Assembly (NCBI RefSeq): GCF_004010195.1
Contig: NC_057751.1
Location: 3,265,111 to 3,329,110 of the forward strand
Direction: 5' to 3'
From: Chiloscyllium plagiosum
Lineage: Eukaryota
DNA: 64,000 nt
Shown: positions 8,568-57,835 of the stretch, in pieces
Position numbering within the stretch: the stretch's first letter is position 1
How the letters are laid out: each line of letters starts with the position of its first letter
Program-made: the position numbers and the translations under genes
Notes under the pieces: model-generated
What the model saw: only the letters and a program-made list of their open reading frames with translations
The model's database searches: none
What the model was told of the DNA's origin: nothing

Positions 8568-9190
8568 AGTTAAGATGTACAGCACAGAAACAGACCCTTC
8601 AGTCCAACTCGTCCATACCTACCAGATATCCTAACCTAATCGAGTCCCATTTGTCAGCACTGGGCCCATGTGCCTCCAAACCCTTCCTATTCATATACCC
8701 ATCCAGATGCCTTGTAAATGTTGCTGTTGTACCAGCCTCCACCACTTCCTCTGGCAGCTCATTCCATTCACGCACCACCCTTTGCGTGAGAAAGGTGCCC
8801 CTTAGGTCCCTTTTAAATTTTTCCCCTCTCACCCTCAACCTATGCCCTCGCAATTTGAACTCCCCCACCCCAGGGAAAGGACCTTGTATGTTTATCCTAT
8901 GCCCAAAACGTCGAATCTCCTGTTCCCTGGATGCTGCCTGACCTGCTGTGCTGTTCCAGCAATAAAGTTTCAACTTTGATCTCCAGCATCTGCAGACCTC
9001 ACTTTCTCCTATCCTATCCATGCCCCTCATGATTTTATAAATCTCTGTGAGGTTAGCCCTCAGCCTCTGACACTCCAGGGAAAAACAGCCTCTCCCTATA
9101 CCCTCTACTCTTGGCAGTCTTCTTCTCAGTCTTTTCTGAAACCGTTCAAGTTTCATAACATCCTTCCTGTAGGAGGGAGCCCACAGTATT
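8568..9190 (-). mobile_element. CR1 LINE 3' fragment, interrupted by a short insert
   Basis: WAPSYRKDVMKLERFQKR...RGHRLRVRGEKFKRDLRGTFLTQRVVREWNELPEEVVEA. Confidence 0.9.
8901..9009 (+). mobile_element. Short hammerhead-family insert (subfamily 1, truncated and degenerate core)
   Basis: GCCCAAAACGTCGAATCTCCTG...GATGCTGCCTGACCTGCTG...; TSD TATCCTAT at 8893-8900 and 9010-9017. Confidence 0.8.
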
Positions 9191-9449
9191 CCAATGCTTA
9201 TCCTTGATTTTAGATTCCTCCACATCCTCATCCTTCTCTTCCTCCTCTGGAATCAGTACTCTGGACAGCTCAACTCCCATGTGCTTGTGACGAGGTGGGT
9301 GACGTGAGCAACACTGACTTCATTCCTTGAATGATTCTTTAGGGTCATTTTATGATTTGAAGGAATAGATCTTTCCCTTAATCCTTCTCCCCCTCAAGAT
9401 GGAAACACCAGCTTGTTTTGTTGTTTCCATGCCCTGAGTTACTCAGGTT

Positions 9450-10040: not shown

Positions 10041-10412
10041 GGATCCAGCAGTGGGATTGAATGAGGAGGAATACTTCTCCTTAGTATCAAGTCGTTTTTT
10101 CACTGTGGACTTCTTCCTTCCAATAACTTGGGAAAACGAAAAGGCAAAGCATCAACACAGAGAGGTTTGCTAGTGAGGACAGGAGCTTTTCTTATTTAAA
10201 CAGCGTGTGTTTGTAGCTGCACAATTGCTGCCAAAGCTGGGACCTGAAAACACAACATTAAAAAGGCCAGGTGGTGAAGGGAAAGGGACAGAGAACGAGG
10301 AGCCAGGGTCTGGGACAGCTCCAGGCACATCAGGGCTCTGTGTCTGGGGCGTCTGGCTGTTGGGGACTTCCTGTGATCAGCTTGAGTCACAGTCCTGAGC
10401 CAGGACTACAGT

Positions 10413-11740
10413 GGGACCCATGAGGTCCCCTGGGCCTGATGGCATTTATCCTAGGATTCTCTGGGAAGCAAGGGAGGAGTTTGCAGAGCCATTGGCCTTG
10501 ATTTTTATGTCCTCGTTGTCTACAGGAATAGTGCCAGAAGATTGGAGGCTAGCAAATGTGGTTCCCTTGTTCAAGAAGGGGAGTAGGGATAACCCTAGTA
10601 ACTATAGGCCGGTGAGTCTCACTTCTGTTGTGGGCAAAATCTTAGAGAGAATTGTAAGGGATAGGATTTATGAACATCTGGATAGAAATNNNNNNNNNNN
10701 NNNNNNNNNNNNNNNNNNNNNNNNNNNNNNNNNNNNNNNNNNNNNNNNNNNNNNNNNNNNNNNNNNNNNNNNNNNNNNNNNNNNNNNNNNNNNNNNNNNN
10801 NNNNNNNNNNNNNNNNNNNNNNNNNNNNNNNNNNNNNNNNNNNNNNNNNNNNNNNNNNNNNNNNNNNNNNNNNNNNNNNNNNNNNNNNNNNNNNNNNNNN
10901 NNNNNNNNNNNNNNNNNNNNNNNNNNNNNNNNNNNNNNNNNNNNNNNNNNNNNNNNNNNNNNNNNNNNNNNNNNNNNNNNNNNNNNNNNNNNNNNNNNNN
11001 NNNNNNNNNNNNNNNNNNNNNNNNNNNNNNNNNNNNNNNNNNNNNNNNNNNNNNNNNNNNNNNNNNNNNNNNNNNNNNNNNNNNNNNNNNNNNNNNNNNN
11101 NNNNNNNNNNNNNNNNNNNNNNNNNNNNNNNNNNNNNNNNNNNNNNNNNNNNNNNNNNNNNNNNNNNNNNNNNNNNNNNNNNNNNNNNNNNNNNNNNNNN
11201 NNNNNNNNNNNNNNNNNNNNNNNNNNNNNNNNNNNNNNNNNNNNNNNNNNNNNNNNNNNNNNNNNNNNNNNNNNNNNNNNNNNNNNNNNNNNNNNNNNNN
11301 NNNNNNNNNNNNNNNNNNNNNNNAAGATCGTATGAGGAAGGGCTGAGGCACTTGGGGTTGTTTTCATTGGAGAAAAGAAGGTTTAGGGGTGACTTGATAG
11401 AGGTGTACAAGATGATTAGGTGTTTAGATAAGGTCGACCGTGAGAATCTTTTTCCACGAATGGAGTCAGCAATTACAAGGGGGCATAGCTTTAAATTAAG
11501 GGGTGGTAGGTATAGGACAGATGTTAGGGGTAGGTTCTTTACTCAGCGAGTCGTGAGTTCATGGAATGCCCTGCCAGTAGCAGTGGTGGACTCTCCCCTC
11601 ATTATGGGCATTTAAGCGGGCATTGGATAGGCATATGGAGGATAGTGGGCTAGTGTAGGTTAGGTGGGCTTGGATTGGCGCAACATCGAGGGCCGAAGGG
11701 CCTGTACTGTGCTGTATTCTTCTATGTTCTATGTTCTATG
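10413..11740 (+). mobile_element. CR1 LINE ORF2 fragment spanning an N gap, with 3' tail
   Basis: SPGPDGIYPRILWE...DWRLANVVPLFKKGSRDNPSNYRPVSLTSVVGKILE before the gap; LFSLEKRRFRGDLIEVYK...WNALP after it; (TTCTATG)n tail. Confidence 0.93.
10690..11323. other. Assembly gap (others at 29846-30345, 53550-53859, 55727-56126)
   Basis: Runs of N. Confidence 1.
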
Positions 11741-12467
11741 ACTCCTGTCCCTGCCTCTGACACTGAGTTAGGATTCTTGCTCATGTGGGGCATGTAAATG
11801 AACCATCTGGTTACTGTGCTGTAACTTCTGTCTGGATTGGGAACGTTTTACTGAGGCCACTGTTGTATTGGCTGCTATTCCCTGTGGGAGAGGAGACTCG
11901 AGGAACAGGAGTTGGCCATTTGGCCCATCATAATCATGGCTGGTGTGGTCTCTCCCTGTAGATCAAGCTCTGCCTATCTCAGGTTGAGATTCAGTGACCC
12001 AGACTCCACTGCAGTCTGGGGCAGGGGAATCCTACAGAGCGACAAGACCCATGTCCCATCGTCACAGCCAAACCTTCCATTTTTAAACCGTGTCCCCTTG
12101 TTTTCATGTGCACCCACCAGAGGATCGACACTTTGATCCACCCCCCTCCCCCAAGGCTGTGATCCATCTATCCTTATGCTTGCTTTGGATCATAAAGGAG
12201 GATATCACCACAAGAGGAGATGTTGAGAGATGTTGATTTTAATCTTCCTTTTCAGAAGGTTGAATCTCAAAGCCTTGCAGTCACCTCTCCCTGCGTTTTG
12301 TTGACACTTCGATAAGGTCGGTGTGCATGGTGTTCAATTCAGGGACATGAGAAAGCGAGACAGAGACAGAGAGGGGAAAGGAATAAAAGGGAGCTGCACC
12401 AGGTGATGGGAGAGACACAGAGACTGCCCCACAAAGACATCAGTGACAGAGTGCTCTCGGATCAATG

Positions 12468-12688
12468 AGGAGAAAGTGAGGGCTGCAGATGCTGGAGATC
12501 AGAGCTGAAAATGTGTTGCTGGAAAAGTGCAGCAGGTCAGGCAGCATCCAGGGAACAGGAGAATCGACGTTTCAGGCATAAGCCCTTCTTCAGGAATTCC
12601 CTGAAGAAGGGCTTATGCCCGAAACGTCGATTCTCCTGTTCCTTGGATGCTGCCTGACCTGCTGTGCTTTTCCAGCAACACATTTTCA
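12468..12688. mobile_element. Fold-back hammerhead-bearing short element (subfamily 1)
   Basis: 13-bp TSD TCTCGGATCAATG (12455-12467, 12689-12701). 89-bp inverted arms 12506-12594 and 12600-12688. Core CTGAAGA-A-GGGC-TTAT-GCCC-GAAAC-GTC at 12601-12628. Confidence 0.85.
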
Positions 12689-13599
12689 TCTCGGATCAAT
12701 GTGGACAAGTGACTCCATCATTTCCCAGTTGTGATCTCTGGTGGAGGTCAGCTTTGAACCACATCTGTGTTGACTGATTTTATGGCAAAGGTACATTTTG
12801 GTAGCAGAGTTGGTGGGGTGGGGGGGGGTGCTATTGGATTTTAGCCAAGAAGTCTTGAATACAGTTTGATACCAAGTGAGACTGACTTGTGTTTCTATTT
12901 CAATCTAGTGGGGAATGTATTGGGAATGACAGTCACATGAAACCTTCTGATACTGAAGTTCAGAGAGTTCAGTGCCCAAAGCTGACACCTTGCCTGGAGC
13001 TTGTGCTAATTCACATCCAGATCAGATCTTGGCAGTGGCTTCTCAGAATCACTCAGGATTCTATCTTAGAGAGCGATCGGTTTGGGTCTGCCTGGGGGGT
13101 TTAACACCTCCATGATAAATGGAGAGGATACAATTGGGAAGTGATTAGGTCCATACTCGCCTGAGTTGAGATGAATGCAAGGGGATCTGACTGAAATGTA
13201 TGAAATTGTAACTGAATTGGAAAGGCTGCATGCAGGGAGGGTATCTTTCCTGGTTTGGTTAAAACACAAACTTGCCGTTTTGACCCTTTGCTGCTCCTGT
13301 GTTTGCACAATGATTGGTCCATTTGACAGAAGGTGAACAGGATCCCTCCCAGATCAGAACCTGGGATAACAGAGAGAAGCTGAGGTTGTTCAGAGAAGGA
13401 GACTGGCAGGTGGTTCCAAATGACACAGGCCAGAGGTGGAGGCTGTTTGAGACACAGGGCAGGTGGCAGGGGGAGAGGGAGTGCACATTGGGATGAGATT
13501 TCTGCTTTTTGACAGTCAGTTGCTATGAACTGCAGCATGCTGTTTTGGAGGGGCTGCTGAAAGCAGATTCAGTTGTAGCTTTCAAAGAGAATTGGATAG

Positions 13600-17579: not shown

Positions 17580-19540
17580 AGTTTGATTGATTTATTGTTG
17601 TGACCTACCGAGATGCAGTGAAAAATGTTGTTTTGCGTGCTCTACAGGCAGATTGTACCATACAAAGTGCACCAGTGTAGCAGAACAGAGTGCAGAATAC
17701 AGTGTTACAGCCACAGAGAAGGTGCAGAGAGAGAGACACACACAGAGACGTTAACCTTTAAGAGATTTGTTAACAGCAGGGAAGAAGGGTTTGGAGAGAT
17801 ATGGGCCGGGTGCTGGCAGGTTGGGTTGGGCTATCTGGTCGGCATGGATGAGTTGGACCGAAGGGTCTGTTTCTGCGCTGTACATCTCTATGACTCGAAG
17901 AAGCTGTTCTTGAATCTGTTTGTACATGCATCCAAATGTTGATAGCATCTTCCTGATGGAGGAGAGTATAACTGGGGTGGGTTGAAAAATGTGGTGCTGG
18001 AAACACACAGCAGGCCAGGCAGCATCCGAGGAGCAGGAGAATCGACGTTTCGGGCATAAACCCTTCTTCTCTGGTCTCCAGCATCTGCAGCCCTCACTTT
18101 CTACTATAACTGGGTGGGAACAGTATTTGTGTATGTTGGTTGTCTTCCCGAGGCAGTGGGAAGTGTAGATGGAAGACTGGTTTGTCTGATGAACTGGGCT
18201 GTGTTCACAACTCTTGATACCTTCTTGCAGTCTTGGGTAGAGCAGTTGCCATACCACATTGTGATCCACACAAAGAGGTTGCTTTCCGTGGTGCAGCTGT
18301 AACAATTGGTCAGAGTCTTTGTGGACATGTTGAATTTCCTTCGCCTCCTGAGGAAGCTGAGGCATTGCTGTGCTTTCTTATCCATCGTGTCTACATGGGC
18401 GGACCAGGTCAGATTGTTGATGTTCTTGACCTTCTCCACCCTCAGCACCATTGATACCTACAGGGGCATGCCCTCCAGCCCCACTTCCTGAAGTCTCTGA
18501 GCAGCTCCTTTGTTTTGCTGATGTCAATGGAGAGATTGTGGTCTTTACACCACGCCGCTAAGTACTCAGTCTCTTCCCTGTACTCCGTCTCGTTTGAGAC
18601 CCAACCTACAATGATGGTGTCGTCAGCAAAGTTGTAAATGGAGTTGGGGTGGAATTTTGCCACACAGTCATTAGTTTAAGGAATACAGTCGGGGGCTGAG
18701 TACACTATCTTGTGCTGCACCAGTGTTGAGGATTATCGTGGAGGAGATGTTGTTGCCAATTCTTACTGATTGCTGCCTGCAGGTCAGGAAGTTGAAGATC
18801 CAGTTTCAGAAGGGGAGCAGACTCCTCGGTCCAGAGTTTGGAGATGAGTTTGGAATTATGGTATTGACGCTGGAGCTGTAATCAATAACTAAGAGCCTGA
18901 TGTAGGTCTCCTTGTTATCCAGATGTAGGTGTCCTGATGTATGTATCCTTTTCATCCAGATGTCCCAGGGATGAGTGTAGGGCCAGGGAGCTGGTGTCTG
19001 CCATTGGGAAGTGAATTACAAGATTCATGACAGTCTGGTTGGCTAGAGTTGATGTGATCCGTGACTAACCTCTTGAATCACTTCATTATTAATGAGGTCA
19101 GAGGCACCGGGTGGTAGTCATTGAGGCATGCTGCCTGACTTTCCTTTTGGTACCAGGATGGTGGTCTTCTTGAAGCAGGTGGGGACTTTAGATTGAAGTA
19201 TGGAGAGATTGAAGGTGTCTTCGAATACTCCCACCCGCTGGTCTGCACAGGATCTGAGTGCACTGCCGGGGAATCGCTTTTCATGGGTTCACTCTCAAGA
19301 AAGTTTATCTAACGTCTGCACTGGTGACCTGGGGTACAGGTGTATCTGAGGCTGGTGGAAAAGGTGACATTGTTTCATTGAGCTTCTGTTTAAAGTGAGT
19401 GTAAAATGCATTGAGTTCATCGGACAGGGATGGATTGTTGCCTGCAGTTCTGTTTGATTTTGCTTTGTAGACCATTACATTGTGTAAGCCTTGCCACACA
19501 AATGATGGGTGATCGTGTGGTTGTTCTGGGTCTCGAGCTT
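17580..19540 (-). mobile_element. Rex1/Babar-like non-LTR retrotransposon, degenerate RT and 3' end, with nested inserts
   Basis: Ordered motifs LSDELNAFY, LNDYHPVPLTSLIMK, FADDTIIVG, LSIDISKTKEL, LTWSAHVD...KKAQQCLSFLRR...ITMWYGNCS; AATAAATCAATCAA tail. Frameshifted. Confidence 0.8.
17982..18104. mobile_element. Short hammerhead-family insert (subfamily 1, inverted junction)
   Basis: Subfamily 1 arm with GACGTTTCGGGC. Flanking duplication TATAACTGGG(G)TGGG at 17967-17981 and 18105-18118. Confidence 0.8.
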
Positions 19541-21073
19541 AGTTTGATATTTCCCCTTGAATGAAACGATGACATGAGAGAGATGCAGCAGCCCTTTGCA
19601 GGACGGTCAGTCTGCAGTTCACATGAACAGACCCTGAATGAATGGCTGCAACGACACAATGTGTGAAGCAGATCCTCACTTACCTCAGATGGTGTCTCTT
19701 CTGACTGATGACCACTGTGATATTGACAAGCGTGGTGTGTGTGCACCCTGACCCAATGTGATAGACACTGGGGCTTGTGAACATTGCATGCCAGTGAGAG
19801 TCTCCCATTCAGACACTTTGGGAAGCACTTTCCTCATGGCACCTCTGGTCCCTGTTGCTCGTTGTTTCTGTCAGCCTGATATCACCCTTCTAATTACACA
19901 ACTCAGGTATTGCTCACTCACTGATCACACAGGCCTGACTGCTCACAGCACGGTCACTCTCCCTTCTTCCTTTGAATCAGAGCTGCTCCCCAGGAGTTCA
20001 ATTTGGGAGAGATTCTGCAGAGTCAAGTTATTATTTCATAGAAGTTCGCAGGTTGATGGGGTGATTTGATTCTTCAAAGATGTGGAGGACAATTGGTAGG
20101 ACAGCAAGAAATTATTTCAACCAGTTGGGGAGTCTAAGACGGGAGTGGGGGAGCAGAGTCGAAACGTGACAGAGAAAAGGTCCAACATACTTGAAAGACT
20201 CATCTGAAAATAATTGATTCAGGATCTGTTGTTAATTTGAAATGGGGAACTGGCTGAAGGTGTTCAGGGAAACGGTGTAAAGTGTGTGGAGTTTAGGAAG
20301 AGAGTCACAGGGTCAAATAGTCTCCTGTTTTCCCCATCATGAAAACAGACTTGAAAGGCACAGCTGAGCCAAGTGAACAAATTGCCTGATAGATAGCTTT
20401 CTGACAGACTAATTGAGTGCAATTAATTTGAAGGGCCCCTCAGATCACTCACTAACTAGCTCCTAGTCATGAGATTTAATTTAACAGGAGACAGAGAGAG
20501 AGAGAGCAACTGGAACAAACAGAATTCCTGTCTGAGAGGTTGTGGGAAGTTTGTTTGTGTTTGACCCTGGCCTGTGGCTGACTGGACACGCAAAACCAGG
20601 CCGTTTCTCGCTTGGGTAGAAAGAAGGTTCACAAAACTGCAGATGCTCACATGGCTGTACAAAGTGTCAGTGCCTTTTTATTCTAATGACCAAGTGTGTT
20701 CATCAACAAGATGTGTGAGAATAGTCTTTGTCTGCCTGGATTGGAATAGTTCCTCTGCTGCAGACAATGGTGGGGATTTGAAGCTTATTACTGAAGGTGA
20801 GCAGATTCCCTCTTGTTCACTCTGTGACAGTGTGGAATTGAATGAAAGATGAATACCGAAATGTTGAGGCTGTTGCCAGCTGGATACTTGGTGACATCAA
20901 TCTTCCCTGGAAAGATATTGCTGGGATCAGATGGATATATGGTCTTAATGTGAAAGGAAATCGTTTTGATAATGATACGGGTATCTTGTTCCACTTTGTG
21001 GAAATACTTGAACAGAAGTTCAGCCGGTGACAACCTCTGATCAGAATATATTGACATTGGGAAGTAAGAATGG

Positions 21074-21286
21074 GAGAAAGTGAGGACTGCAGATGCTGGA
21101 GATCAGAGCTGAAAATGTGTTGCTGGAAAAGCGCAACAGGTCAGGCAGCATCCAAGGAGCAGGAGAATCGACGTTTTGTGTATGAGCCCTTCTTCAGGAA
21201 AGAAGAAGGGCTCATGTCTGAAATGTCGATTCTCCTATTCCTTGGATGCTGCCTGACATGCTGCGCTTATCCAGCCACACAAATAC
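21074..21286. mobile_element. Fold-back hammerhead-family element (subfamily 1, decayed cores)
   Basis: Inverted arms around about 21195. TSD AGAATGG at 21067-21073 and 21287-21293. Confidence 0.8.
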
Positions 21287-27549: not shown

Positions 27550-27722
27550 CAAGCAGGAGGCTGGAGGAACACAGCAACACAGGCAGCATCAGGAGGCAGA
27601 GAAGTCCATGTTTCAGATGTAACCCTTCTGCACCTCCTGAAGCTGCCTAGCTTGCTGTGTACTTCCAGCCTTCTGCCTCTCCACCTTGGATTCCAGCATC
27701 TGCAGTTTTTTTTTGTCTCTAA
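27550..27722. mobile_element. Fold-back short element related to the hammerhead families (core decayed)
   Basis: Imperfect inverted arms and shared CCAGCATCTGCAG end. 16-bp TSD CAGAGGT(A/T)GTGGTGGA at 27534-27549 and 27723-27738. Confidence 0.7.
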
Positions 27723-35402: not shown

Positions 35403-35540
35403 CCTGAGAAAGGGTCACTTGGCCCGAAACGTTAACTCTGATTTCTCTCCGCAGGTGCTGCCAGATCTGCTGAGCTTTTCCAGCGACTTCTGTTTTTATG
35501 TCTGATTTACAGCATCTGCAGTTCTTTCGGTTTTTATCTG
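35403..35540 (+). mobile_element. Short hammerhead-family element (subfamily 2)
   Basis: CTGAGAA-A-GGGTCACTTGGCCC-GAAAC-GTT-AACTC (G8>A variant), followed by the TGCTGCCAGATCTGCTGAGCTTTTCCAGC...CAGCATCTGCAG body. Confidence 0.7.
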
Positions 35541-40699: not shown

Positions 40700-41340
40700 G
40701 CTCCCATGCCCACGTGTCTGTCCTTGGCCTGCTGCAATGTTCCAGTGAAGCTCAACGCAAACTGGAGGAACAGCATCTCATCTTCCGACTTGGCACGTTA
40801 CAGCCTGCCGGTCTCAACATTGAATTCAACAACTTCAGATGATTATCCCATCTCGACCCCTCTGTTTTCATTCTGCTCTGTAATTTAATTTCATTTATTT
40901 TATCTAGTTTCTTAAATTTTTTTTCACTGTTCTGTACCTCTTATTTCTTGATTGTCTCTCTTTCTCTCGCTCTCCACTCTCTTATCACCGTTTTCCTCTC
41001 CTCTTCCCCTTTTGCTACCCTTCTCCCCCGTTTTCCATTTTGCCTCTGCTTCACCCATTCCCAACATATTTTGTCACATAGCACTTGCTTCAGCCTTGGT
41101 CATTCCCAGCTCCTAATCTCCCAATAATCCCTCTATGCACTGTCATTGTCACCTCTTTATTACTACCTTTGCTTCTGGAGCCAGGACTCACCTTCTCTCA
41201 ACCGAGTATAAATACCTCCCCATTTCTCCCTTTTTGTTTAGCTTTGACAAAGCGTCAGTGAGACTCGAAACATCAGCTCTTTTCTCTCCTTACAGATGCT
41301 GCCAGACCTGCTGAGATTTTCCAGCATTTTCTTTTTTGGT
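40700..41340 (+). mobile_element. Penelope-like element 3' end (endonuclease C-terminus, 3' region, terminal hammerhead-like remnant)
   Basis: HVSVLGLLQCSSEAQRKLEEQHLIFRLGTLQPAGLNIEF is typical of the PLE endonuclease C-terminus. AGCT-TTGACAA-A-GCGTCAGTGAGACTC-GAAAC-ATC-AGCT near 41240-41278 is followed by the subfamily 2 body. Confidence 0.75.
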
Positions 41341-41662
41341 TGTGCATAGCTGTTGGCTGGAGATCGGACAACCTCTTAAAGGCAGAGCATCTCCAAGAGA
41401 GAAACCAAAATGCTTCATGAGAAAGACAAATTTTAGAAGGACTTTGTGACAGAGTGTGATTGCCAGATTCTGAATAGACTGATGAGCCAGTTTGTAAGTT
41501 CTGCCCTGCTTGTGTCTGCCGTTTAAAGAACAATTTATAATTGACCACAATTTGCCTGTTAATTCATGTTTAACTTATGTCGATTCTGGATGTTAAATCA
41601 TCATTTATTTCAGATCGTCTTTAGTTTTTGCTTTGTTCGCCTCTTATAGGTAGAAATGTTTC

Positions 41663-41762
41663 GATTCTCCTGCTCCTTGGATGCTGCCTGACCTGCTGTG
41701 CTTTTCCAGCCCCACACTCTCTCGACTCTGATCCCCAGCATCTGCAGGCCTCACTTTCTCCC
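41663..41762 (+). mobile_element. Short subfamily 1 insert beginning at the predicted ribozyme cleavage site
   Basis: 11-bp TSD AGAAATGTTTC (41652-41662, 41763-41773). Insert begins GATTCTCCTG. Confidence 0.85.
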
Positions 41763-49021: not shown

Positions 49022-50518
49022 TCCAGTACCAAGCAGCAGCACTGACCAATACCAAGCAGCACTGACCAGTACCAAGCAGTAGCACTAACCATTACCAAGC
49101 AGCACTGACCAGTGCCAAGTAGCAGCACTGACCAGTGCCAAGCAGCAGCACTGACCAATGGCAAATAAGAGCACTGACCAGTACCAAACTGCAGCACTGA
49201 CCATTAACAAGCAGCACTGACCGGTGCCAAGCAGCAGCACTGACCATTAACAAGCAGCACTGACCGGTGCCAAGCAGCAGCAGTGATCATTAACAAGCAG
49301 CACTGACCAGTGCCAAGCAGCAGCACTGACCAATGGAAAATAAGAGCACTGACCAGTACCAAACTGCAGCACTGACCATTAACAAGCAGCACTGACCATT
49401 AACAAGCAACAGCAGTGACCATTAATAAGTAGCACTGACCAGTCCCAAGCAGCAGCACTGACCATTAACAAGCAGCACTGACCATTAATAAGCAGCACTG
49501 ACCAGTCCCAAGCAGCAGCACTGACCATTAATAAGTAGCACTGACCAGTCCCAAGCAGCAGCAGTGACCATTAATAAGTAGCACTGACCAGTCCCAAGCA
49601 GCAGCACTAACCATTAATAAGTAGCAGCACTGACCAATGGCAAATAAGAGCACTGACCAGTACCAAACTGCAGCACTGACCATTAACAAGCAGCACTGAC
49701 CATTAATAAGTAGCACTGACCAGTCCCAAGCAGCAGCAGCATTGACCATTAAGTAGCACTGACCAGTCCCAAGCAGCAGCACTGGCCATTAATAAGTAGC
49801 ACTGACCAATCCCAAGCTGCAGCACTAGCCATTAACAAGCAGCACTGACCATTAATAAGTAGCACTGACCAGTCCCAAGCAGCAGCAGTGACCATTAATA
49901 AGTAGCACTGACCAATCCCAAGCTGCAGCACTGGCCATTAACAAGCAGCACTGACCATTAATAAGTAGCACTGACCAGTCCCAAGCAGCAGCAGTGACCA
50001 TTAATAAGTAGCACTGACCAATCCCAAGCAGCAGCACTGGCCATTAACAAGCAGCACTGACCATTAATAAGTAGCACTGACCAGTCCCAAGCAGCAGCAG
50101 TGACCATTAATAAGTAGCACTGACCAGTGCCAAGCAGCAGCAGTGACCATTAATAAGCAGCACTGACCAGTCCCAAGCAGCAGCACTGACCAGTGCCAAG
50201 CAGCAGCACTGACCAGTCCCAAGCAGCAGCACTGACCAGTGCCAAGTAGAAGCACTGGCCATTAATCAGCAGCACTGACCAGTCCCAAGCAACATTGACC
50301 AGAGCTGAAAATGTGTTGCTGGAAAAGCGCAGCAGGTCAGGCAGCATCCAAGGAGCAGGAGAATCGACGTTTCGGGCATGAGCCCTTCTTCAGAAGTCAT
50401 TGACCAGTACCAAGCAGCACTGAGCAGTGGCCAGCAGCACTGACCAGTACCAAGCACCACTGAGCAGTGGCCAGCAGCACTGACCAGTACCAAGCAGCAC
50501 TGAGCAGTGGCCAGCAGC
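49022..50518. repeat. Compound minisatellite, 20/23-bp units AAGCAGC(AGC)ACTGACCAGTNCC and AAGYAGCACTGACCATTAAY
   Basis: Directly visible; about 1.3 kb upstream of the EGR3 TATA box. Confidence 0.95.
50303..50397 (-). mobile_element. Subfamily 1 insert with an intact hammerhead core, inside the minisatellite
   Basis: 10-bp TSD CATTGACCAG (50293-50302, 50398-50407). Minus strand CTGAAGA-A-GGGC-TCAT-GCCC-GAAAC-GTC at 50393-50366. Confidence 0.82.
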
Positions 50519-52508: not shown

Positions 52509-55556
<3,048 letters not shown>

Positions 55557-57659: not shown

Positions 57660-57835
57660 AAAATATAGAACTGCAAATGCTGGAAATCTGAAACAAACAG
57701 AGACATTTCTGGAGAAACTCGGCAAGTCTGGCAGCATCGGTGGAGAGAAAGACAGAGTCGGTGTTTCGGGTCTAGTGACCCTTCCTCAGAATGCTGCCGG
57801 ACCGGCTGAGTTTTTCTTATAGTTTCTGTTTCAGA
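57660..57835. mobile_element. Partly fold-back subfamily 2 element
   Basis: Minus strand CTGAGGA-A-GGGTC-ACTA-GACCC-GAAAC-ACC (cleavage triplet mutated) with a partial inverted arm. Confidence 0.7.

Follow-up and report, generated by a model that had tools for sequence, protein, structure and literature searches.

What is the short insert at positions 12468-12688 of a 64,000-nt stretch of the Chiloscyllium plagiosum genome (NC_057751.1; hereafter, the window)? A preliminary description, made from the letters alone, proposed that it belongs to a non-autonomous, retrozyme-like family that carries a minimal hammerhead ribozyme on each strand and is mobilised by Penelope machinery. We compared the insert with its relatives in the 3.56-Gb assembly and with published Penelope-like elements (PLEs).

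The insert and its predicted fold

As first described, the insert is 221 bp long, has a 13-bp target site duplication (TSD, TCTCGGATCAATG), and contains neither an open reading frame (no frames of 150 amino acids or more overlap it) nor poly(A). The two copies of the 13-mer are identical; for comparison, the TSD finder reported a duplication at 4 of 200 randomly chosen positions. The 89-bp inverted repeat is also present: 12506-12594 aligns to 12600-12688 over 89 nt each, with four mismatches, three of which are CpG-type. A further 38 nt (12468-12505) lie outside the repeat and form a Penelope tail, which makes the longer arm sense on the minus strand. The features are listed in Table 1. Negative numbers give the distance back from the end of the element's tail: -1 is window position 12468 on the minus strand, C3 of the hammerhead is -126, and the predicted cleavage product begins at -98.

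Table 1. Features of the insert, in window coordinates.
Feature	Position	Strand	Description
Whole insert	12468-12688		221 nt between two identical 13-mers
TSD, left copy	12455-12467	+	13 nt, exact match to 12689-12701
TSD, right copy	12689-12701	+	13 nt, exact
Long arm	12468-12597	-	terminal 130 nt of a Penelope-like element, -130 to -1
Tail	12468-12505	-	38 nt, confined to the long arm
Long-arm minimal type I hammerhead core	12566-12593	-	predicted cut between 12566 and 12565
Head-to-head junction	12598-12599	.	two extra bases
Short arm	12600-12688	+	spans -127 to -39 of that element end and lacks the tail
Short-arm minimal type I hammerhead core	12601-12628	+	predicted cut after 12628

Both arms are the pseudo-LTR (pLTR) end of an element, one with a tail and one without, and they meet at a junction that is private to this copy. 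The long arm starts at the A of an initiator-like TCATT. The register of the junction is ambiguous because of AT/TT microhomology.

The plus strand of the insert is predicted to fold into a single hairpin of -182 kcal/mol (z = -23.6), and none of 200 shuffles was as stable. The preliminary description expected a long dsRNA hairpin to sequester the ribozyme, and the predicted fold does take in both cores.

The arms are the end of an autonomous Penelope-like element

Some copies of this element end extend in one direction or the other. In the locus that we call L002, the second copy runs on upstream of the core. Among 30 loci with a longer end, the upstream extents differ and reach up to ~750 nt, into a frame for a GIY-YIG endonuclease (EN). 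L086 encodes an open frame of 561 amino acids with a reverse transcriptase (RT) domain (RVT_1, E = 1.4e-8), followed by the same element end and a partial tandem. The GIY-YIG match in L086 fell under the cut-off (E = 5e-4) and the one in L055 was over it (E = 5.4e-5). On the other side, one conserved sequence continues beyond the tail in 233 loci. About half of the 30 loci that we read reach an ATG, which lies 37 nt beyond the tail; in L123, the frame past the tail corresponds to the N-terminus of PLE homologues, and in rare copies the tail continues into the element's ORF, at its 5' end. Given the GIY-YIG frame upstream and the N-terminus of the ORF downstream, the unit is the pLTR end plus the 5' leader of an autonomous EN+ PLE. 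Published EN+ PLEs have the same arrangement, with RT plus a GIY-YIG domain at the C-terminus and a tail that is continuous with the 5' region of the ORF, as described for their complex insertions (PMC3846280; PMC8557442). The arms end as the ends of this RT-GIY-YIG element do, which bears out the proposal that Penelope machinery mobilised the insert.

The linker that separates RT from EN contains C-x4-C-x2-C in L086 and PCKCKRCKTC in the parent protein P0001. A zinc-finger-like motif at this place is described for Neptune and is shared with Nematis (PMC8557442). The parent is an autonomous EN+ PLE with a linker of the Neptune/Nematis type. Carpet sharks supply the closest named relatives of its protein (66-81% identity), and no named reference PLE protein was among the hits. 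P0001 had no RNase H domain according to Pfam, and a search of PDB sequences with the parent protein gave no matches. No complete pLTR-ORF-pLTR parent was found among 40 candidates with long frames, many of which have N gaps or stops; most of the long "open frames" are N gaps. The family is probably in Repbase and Dfam; we found no description of it in the open-access literature.

Several other loci bear on the element's copies. Long fold-back copies (L081, L082, L085, L088, and others) often have N gaps between their inverted ends, so the assembly is broken by such copies. Compound inserts (L122, L123, L127, L130, L145, L146, and L150) contain the unit plus 50-230 nt of the 5' sequence of the ORF and then jump back to -130 or nearby. 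These resemble template jumps after run-off. Within the window, the same PLE end is found at 8898-9010, 21073-21281, 41661-41761, 50297-50393, and 54170-54234, sometimes as a fold-back and sometimes alone. Other families contribute more diverged PLE ends at 27560-27705, 35422-35521, 41295-41326, and 57671-57816, some of them in inverted pairs. The copy at 8898-9010 lies inside a LINE RT fragment; such fragments, which we take to be CR1-type, flank an assembly gap (8599-9252 and 10399-11615).

The hammerhead is conserved in the parents and is probably a passenger here

The short-arm core reads exactly as first described, CUGAAGA-A-GGGC(UUAU)GCCC-GAAAC-GUC, and is intact; its stem I is disrupted by the junction. 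The long-arm core has the same motif on the minus strand, and the one stem II change that had been noted is GCCU in place of GCCC. This is a CpG-type C>T change at C11.1, which turns the conserved G10.1-C11.1 pair into G-U. Stem I is weak, again as first described. In its native context, it has two pairs, a U-U, and then a third pair, and the right arm has a single pair. Neither isolated core folds better than its shuffles (z = -0.40 and 0.27). An Rfam scan with E up to 10 did not return any hammerhead model, and the only matches were to generic miRNA hairpins, all under the gathering score.

The preliminary description suggested a descriptor search and an analysis of covariation. Our descriptor of minimal hammerheads had 49 matches in 1.2 Mb of genome from fixed positions and 0, 1, and 0 matches in three shuffles, so the motif is not due to chance. 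Also, the core columns show roughly a third of the variation seen in the other non-CpG columns. Specifically, non-CpG departures were found at 8/424 in the core versus 219/3951 in other columns for young copies, and at 36/711 versus 791/6422 for older copies. Stems I and II and the palindrome of helix III covary between this family and a second PLE family, which has GGAGC/GCUCC in stem II, AGCU in helix III, and CAC/GUG in stem I. Because the core is conserved and its stems covary, we conclude that the hammerhead is under selection in the active parents.

The motif agrees with the minimal hammerheads of metazoan PLEs, as the preliminary description had it. As described in PMC4209133, these share the type I core, the palindromic ACGU for helix III, a short helix I, and the extra base between A9 and G10.1, which had rightly been called natural. 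In contrast to those hammerheads, N7 is A in the young subfamily and helix II is just 4 bp. The same paper describes dual minimal hammerheads on opposite strands, 100-700 bp apart, in copies that are mostly truncated. Another PLE-like family also has a minimal hammerhead in the window, at 1203-1240 on the minus strand (CUGAUGA-U-long stem II-GAAAC-GUC).

In the fold-back insert, the hammerhead would be a passenger, because a read-through transcript would bury the core in ~89 bp of dsRNA. We think that ribozyme activity of the insert is unlikely, since the long-arm core lacks the G10.1-C11.1 pair, the short-arm core lacks stem I, and both are predicted to pair with their antisense. With one core on each strand, a transcript of the insert never contains two sense ribozymes from which a circle could be released. 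Across 168 arms from the genome (see below), we did not find an excess of ends at the cleavage site: five end at -98, and at least two of these are alignment stops that are due to CpG decay.

Each fold-back is made anew

The genome contains 67,440 copies of an exact 20-mer from the core, and one exact pattern for the centre of the fold-back, with varied spacers, occurs at 5,136 loci. Extrapolating from 38 head-to-head pairs in 1.16 Mb, there would be ~100,000 such pairs. The 30 best matches to our insert have fixed ends and differing centres. We counted at least 57 classes of junction in 62 short young pairs, a set that includes the 30 loci selected as best matches to our insert, and no variants at three variable columns are specific to the long or the short arms. 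Fold-backs range from ~120 nt to 1.4 kb. Longer ones are 484-1,439 nt, and those of 567, 642, and 1,439 nt keep the same ends and have TSDs. Excluding two of the 30 loci that touched the edge of the locus, 25/28 have TSDs of 12-18 nt, which are unrelated in sequence, and three have none.

Because junctions are private to copies and lengths form a continuous range, we infer that the fold-back is made anew at each insertion and is not copied as a unit. This argues against the separate retrozyme-like family of the preliminary description: the arms are the end of an autonomous element, the junctions vary, and the sizes run from ~120 nt to 1.4 kb. A retrozyme as the replicating unit also needs at least two hammerheads on the same strand, in tandem or in LTRs, and here the cores are on opposite strands. 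Non-LTR retrozymes, as described in bioRxiv 2026.07.22.740005 and PMC6155905, resemble the insert in being non-coding, derived from pLTRs, and equipped with a type I hammerhead. However, they are head-to-tail tandems that yield circles, and the insert is head-to-head.

Aspects of the layout are already known. In the complex insertions of PLEs, a pLTR is accompanied by an adjacent inverted 5'-truncated copy and a tail of 30-40 bp (PMC3846280; PMC8557442). The inverted pLTR and tail are described from rotifer, fly, and other PLEs (PMC3846280; PMC8557442; PMC2377424), which supports the preliminary statement that PLEs often form inverted terminal structures. Like our insert, these insertions have head-to-head pLTR ends, one tailed arm, and a TSD of variable length. 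Inverted pLTRs with a 31-bp tail have a TSD of 8-10 bp (PMC3846280); the present stubs have 12-18 nt. The stubs also differ from the published insertions in that they consist of the two ends alone, without an ORF body, in that there are thousands of copies, and in their marked stop just upstream of the hammerhead. To the extent that these sources cover them, both the inverted layout with a tail and opposite-strand pairs of hammerheads (PMC4209133) are known already.

Two classes of 3' ends and a probable shared template

For an unselected sample, we surveyed 120 stretches at fixed round positions (1,156,146 non-N bases, or ~1.16 Mb). This yielded 168 arms, in 38 head-to-head pairs and 92 singles, with one pair of tail-to-tail neighbours. 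Arms come in two kinds: the 3' ends of 64 young arms fall at -31 to -51 (33 arms) or at -1 to -7 (31 arms). Both tailed and tailless arms are also found alone, with TSDs, and the tail is present in 56 singles and absent from 36. The pairs comprise 34 long with short and 4 short with short, one of which is a false pair of two families. None are long with long, versus 14 expected from the singles under independence (p = 6e-7). Five long-long pairs were found, solely in loci that were selected for extension into the ORF.

The arms of a pair are also alike in sequence. At three columns that are diagnostic for subfamilies, paired arms disagree in 3/53, 6/63, and 4/63 pairs, versus 15, 21, and 30 pairs expected for independent arms (background 3.5%). 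Our insert's arms are discordant at one diagnostic column, -84. The length class is shared as well (6 long/long, 1 mixed, and 31 short/short in 38 pairs), although this is significant only if partly selected loci are included; the fixed-position sample alone has 10 pairs (p = 0.067). Arm concordance would also arise if there were one active master at a time or later homogenisation.

Some long arms consist of the tail only: 13/188 end at -30 to -44, and six have an inverted partner. We considered whether these indicate that one cDNA blocks the other, but this is anecdotal because none of the four in the fixed-position sample have an inverted partner. In the window, 17986-18105 combines a tail-only long arm (-37 to -1) with an inverted short arm (-124 to -41) and a duplication of ~14 nt. 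LINE-1 twin priming likewise gives non-overlapping arms.

Many arms stop just upstream of the hammerhead

Among 31 young core-bearing arms examined without alignment, 15 end at -126 to -133, none end at -134 to -146, and 16 extend further. We prefer this count to the alignment-based one (18/38 at -126 to -136), which is inflated by older subfamilies that have other upstream sequence. Genome-wide, the 16-mer at -162 is found in 18,735 arms, compared to 48,971 for a downstream 16-mer of equal length; both counts are affected by subfamily variants. In public contigs, the commonest head-to-tail joint among those listed links the tail end to -130 (22 contigs), and loose ends pile up at -130 in sequencing runs that are labelled as other organisms. 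Arm ends spread over -126 to -134 and are not confined to one base.

The consensus for transcription initiators is BBCABW. Position -130 is the A of CTCATT, which matches this consensus (background of 1.7% per site), although it is a motif of 6 nt and is imperfect in older subfamilies. In the second PLE family, 8/17 arms, as judged by eye, have their stop near TCCACA, 5-13 nt ahead of C3, and in both families there is a BBCABW match at the stop. This second family, which is also abundant (L167, L171, L200, L225, L235, L237, L250, and others), has the same pattern of fold-back, tail, and stop before the core, with an AT-rich upstream region. When a cap is copied by reverse transcriptase, it leaves a G at the end of the cDNA, a signature that comes from work on L1. 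A G precedes 5/6 of the solo ends at -130, of which two or three are also explained by the flank or the ORF; by this analogy, the G might hint at a copied cap. The stop in thousands of stubs may mark the start of the RNA.

Copies with 5' sequence from the ORF are relevant here. If the stop were the 5' end of the RNA, they would not be expected to extend beyond -134. They go past it almost as frequently as other copies do, 14 against 51 (0.27, versus 0.38 overall; p = 0.15), which counts somewhat against run-off. Tandem transcripts, strand transfer, or simple pausing could explain how ORF-extended copies pass -130. By analogy to the intron of D. virilis Penelope, we considered a spliced 5' exon joined at the hammerhead, but there was no common upstream sequence at the listed junctions. 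The D. virilis element does have an internal TATA-less promoter with an initiator in its pLTR, as described in PMC2377424. A similar 5' stop may already be visible in supplementary figures S1-S2 of PMC11167929, which give the genomic ends of PAc, a Poseidon element from Anolis.

In an RNA run that is labelled as another organism, 78-96% of the matching reads continue into unlike sequence. These reads are passengers in host transcripts and are uninformative about our insert. A second RNA run gave no matching reads, and no RNA record with the sequence was listed. No sites where RNA begins or ends at the element were listed in one fragmented RNA library.

Twin priming as the probable source of the insert

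We propose that the insert comprises two head-to-head, 5'-truncated PLE ends from a single insertion event, and that these probably arose by twin target-primed reverse transcription. The GIY-YIG endonuclease would nick both strands of the target, ~13 nt apart. Each 3'-OH would prime cDNA synthesis from either of two internal start sites on the element's RNA: the tail end, or ~35 nt upstream of it. Both cDNAs would copy the same end of the RNA, which would be possible without RNase H, and would halt at or just short of -130. The two cDNAs would then be end-joined with trimming and microhomology.

Much of this is reminiscent of PAc. As described in PMC11167929, PAc cuts and extends both target strands in vitro, two internal RT start sites bound its tail, and insertion in vitro does not require the ribozyme. 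The present element also has two start sites that bound the tail, seen here as classes of genomic 3' ends instead of in vitro. The elements differ in that the PAc ORF starts within the hammerhead, in contrast to the ATG 37 nt past the tail in the present ORF, and in the Neptune/Nematis-type linker of the present element.

Twin priming is well known for LINE-1 elements: a second nick in the target primes an inverted cDNA, the cDNAs are end-joined at microhomology, and there is a TSD. The two LINE-1 cDNAs cover adjacent segments of the RNA, whereas the arms of the present element mostly cover the same segment and begin at fixed sites. We found no report of twin priming or of strong-stop cDNA for PLEs in the open-access literature.

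How else could the insert have arisen? PMC3846280 proposes self-priming for palindromic junctions of PLEs. A single cDNA or antisense RNA would fold at the junction and copy itself, and an endonuclease would resolve the hairpin near the tail. This would account for the concordance of arms, their shared length class, and templated bits at junctions. But the short arm is the one with the greater upstream extent in 17 of the 38 pairs (the long arm is in 11, and 10 are within 3 nt), which excludes a long cDNA copied back on itself as the source. Self-priming also fits poorly with lone short arms that have their own TSDs, with the joining of a tail-only arm to an inverted short arm at 17986-18105, and with the extension of both strands from two start sites by PAc in vitro (PMC11167929), and we consider it improbable. 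Similarly, a separate fold-back family, whose masters are themselves transcribed fold-backs and which is mobilised in trans, would explain the very high copy number, the narrow size class of ~200-230 nt, and why some junctions recur; PLE pLTRs are capable of moving other sequence in trans (PMC3846280), and tandem retrozymes derive from pLTRs (bioRxiv 2026.07.22.740005). Microhomology at the stop site, however, would be expected to give just these recurring junctions, and the other evidence (the diversity of junctions, the continuum of lengths, the lack of arm-specific variants, and opposite-strand cores buried in dsRNA) makes this scenario very unlikely. Finally, a small, non-coding, and almost wholly palindromic insert could be a MITE of a DNA transposon, with a fixed short TSD. 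We give this almost no credence: the TSDs are 12-18 nt and unrelated in sequence, the 38-nt asymmetric tail means that the repeat is not terminal at that end, and the insert's ends are those of an RT-GIY-YIG element.

Within twin priming, why do the cDNAs stop near -130? We put roughly even chances on the stop being the natural 5' end of the RNA, at an initiator-type start just before stem I of the hammerhead. If so, the stubs would be run-off products. An alternative for this step alone, which overlaps with our preferred explanation, is that RT pauses or is released there because of the hammerhead's fold or a bound protein, or that the endonuclease nicks at ATT. About half of the arms pass -130, including copies with 5' sequence from the ORF; the unrelated second family also stops 5-13 nt before the core in 8/17 arms; and the PAc endonuclease favours ATT (PMC11167929). 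Evidence against pausing or nicking is the sharp upstream limit (no ends in the next 13 nt), the BBCABW match at the stop in both families, and the G before 5/6 solo ends at -130, as from a copied cap. We view a pause or nick as a real possibility, though short of an even chance.

Implications

By itself, the insert is ordinary: it is a decayed stub with a known pattern of insertion, and it has likely been inactive since it inserted. Its value is statistical. As frozen products, the stubs bear on the tandem and inverted insertions of PLEs and on the role of the hammerhead, which are discussed in PMC8557442 and PMC11167929. Their ends give rules that can be tested: a long and a short start in each event, a shared template, and a stop at the 5' edge of the ribozyme. 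For annotators, such hairpins are liable to be mistaken for MITEs, miRNA precursors, or new retroposons with ribozymes.

A stronger reading, which we offer as a speculation and think unlikely, is that the stubs represent "strong-stop" intermediates that became trapped during Penelope replication. The RNA would start at an initiator right at stem I of the hammerhead, and a dimeric RT would prime twice near the RNA's 5' end and then run off. Normally, the run-off cDNA would jump to the RNA's 3' end, where cleavage of the downstream pLTR by the hammerhead would leave a matching overlap of 32 nt (-130 to -99). If the transfer failed on both strands, a fold-back would result. If this is true, then retrovirus-like strand transfer would explain why these elements have a pseudo-LTR and a tail and why they retain the ribozyme.
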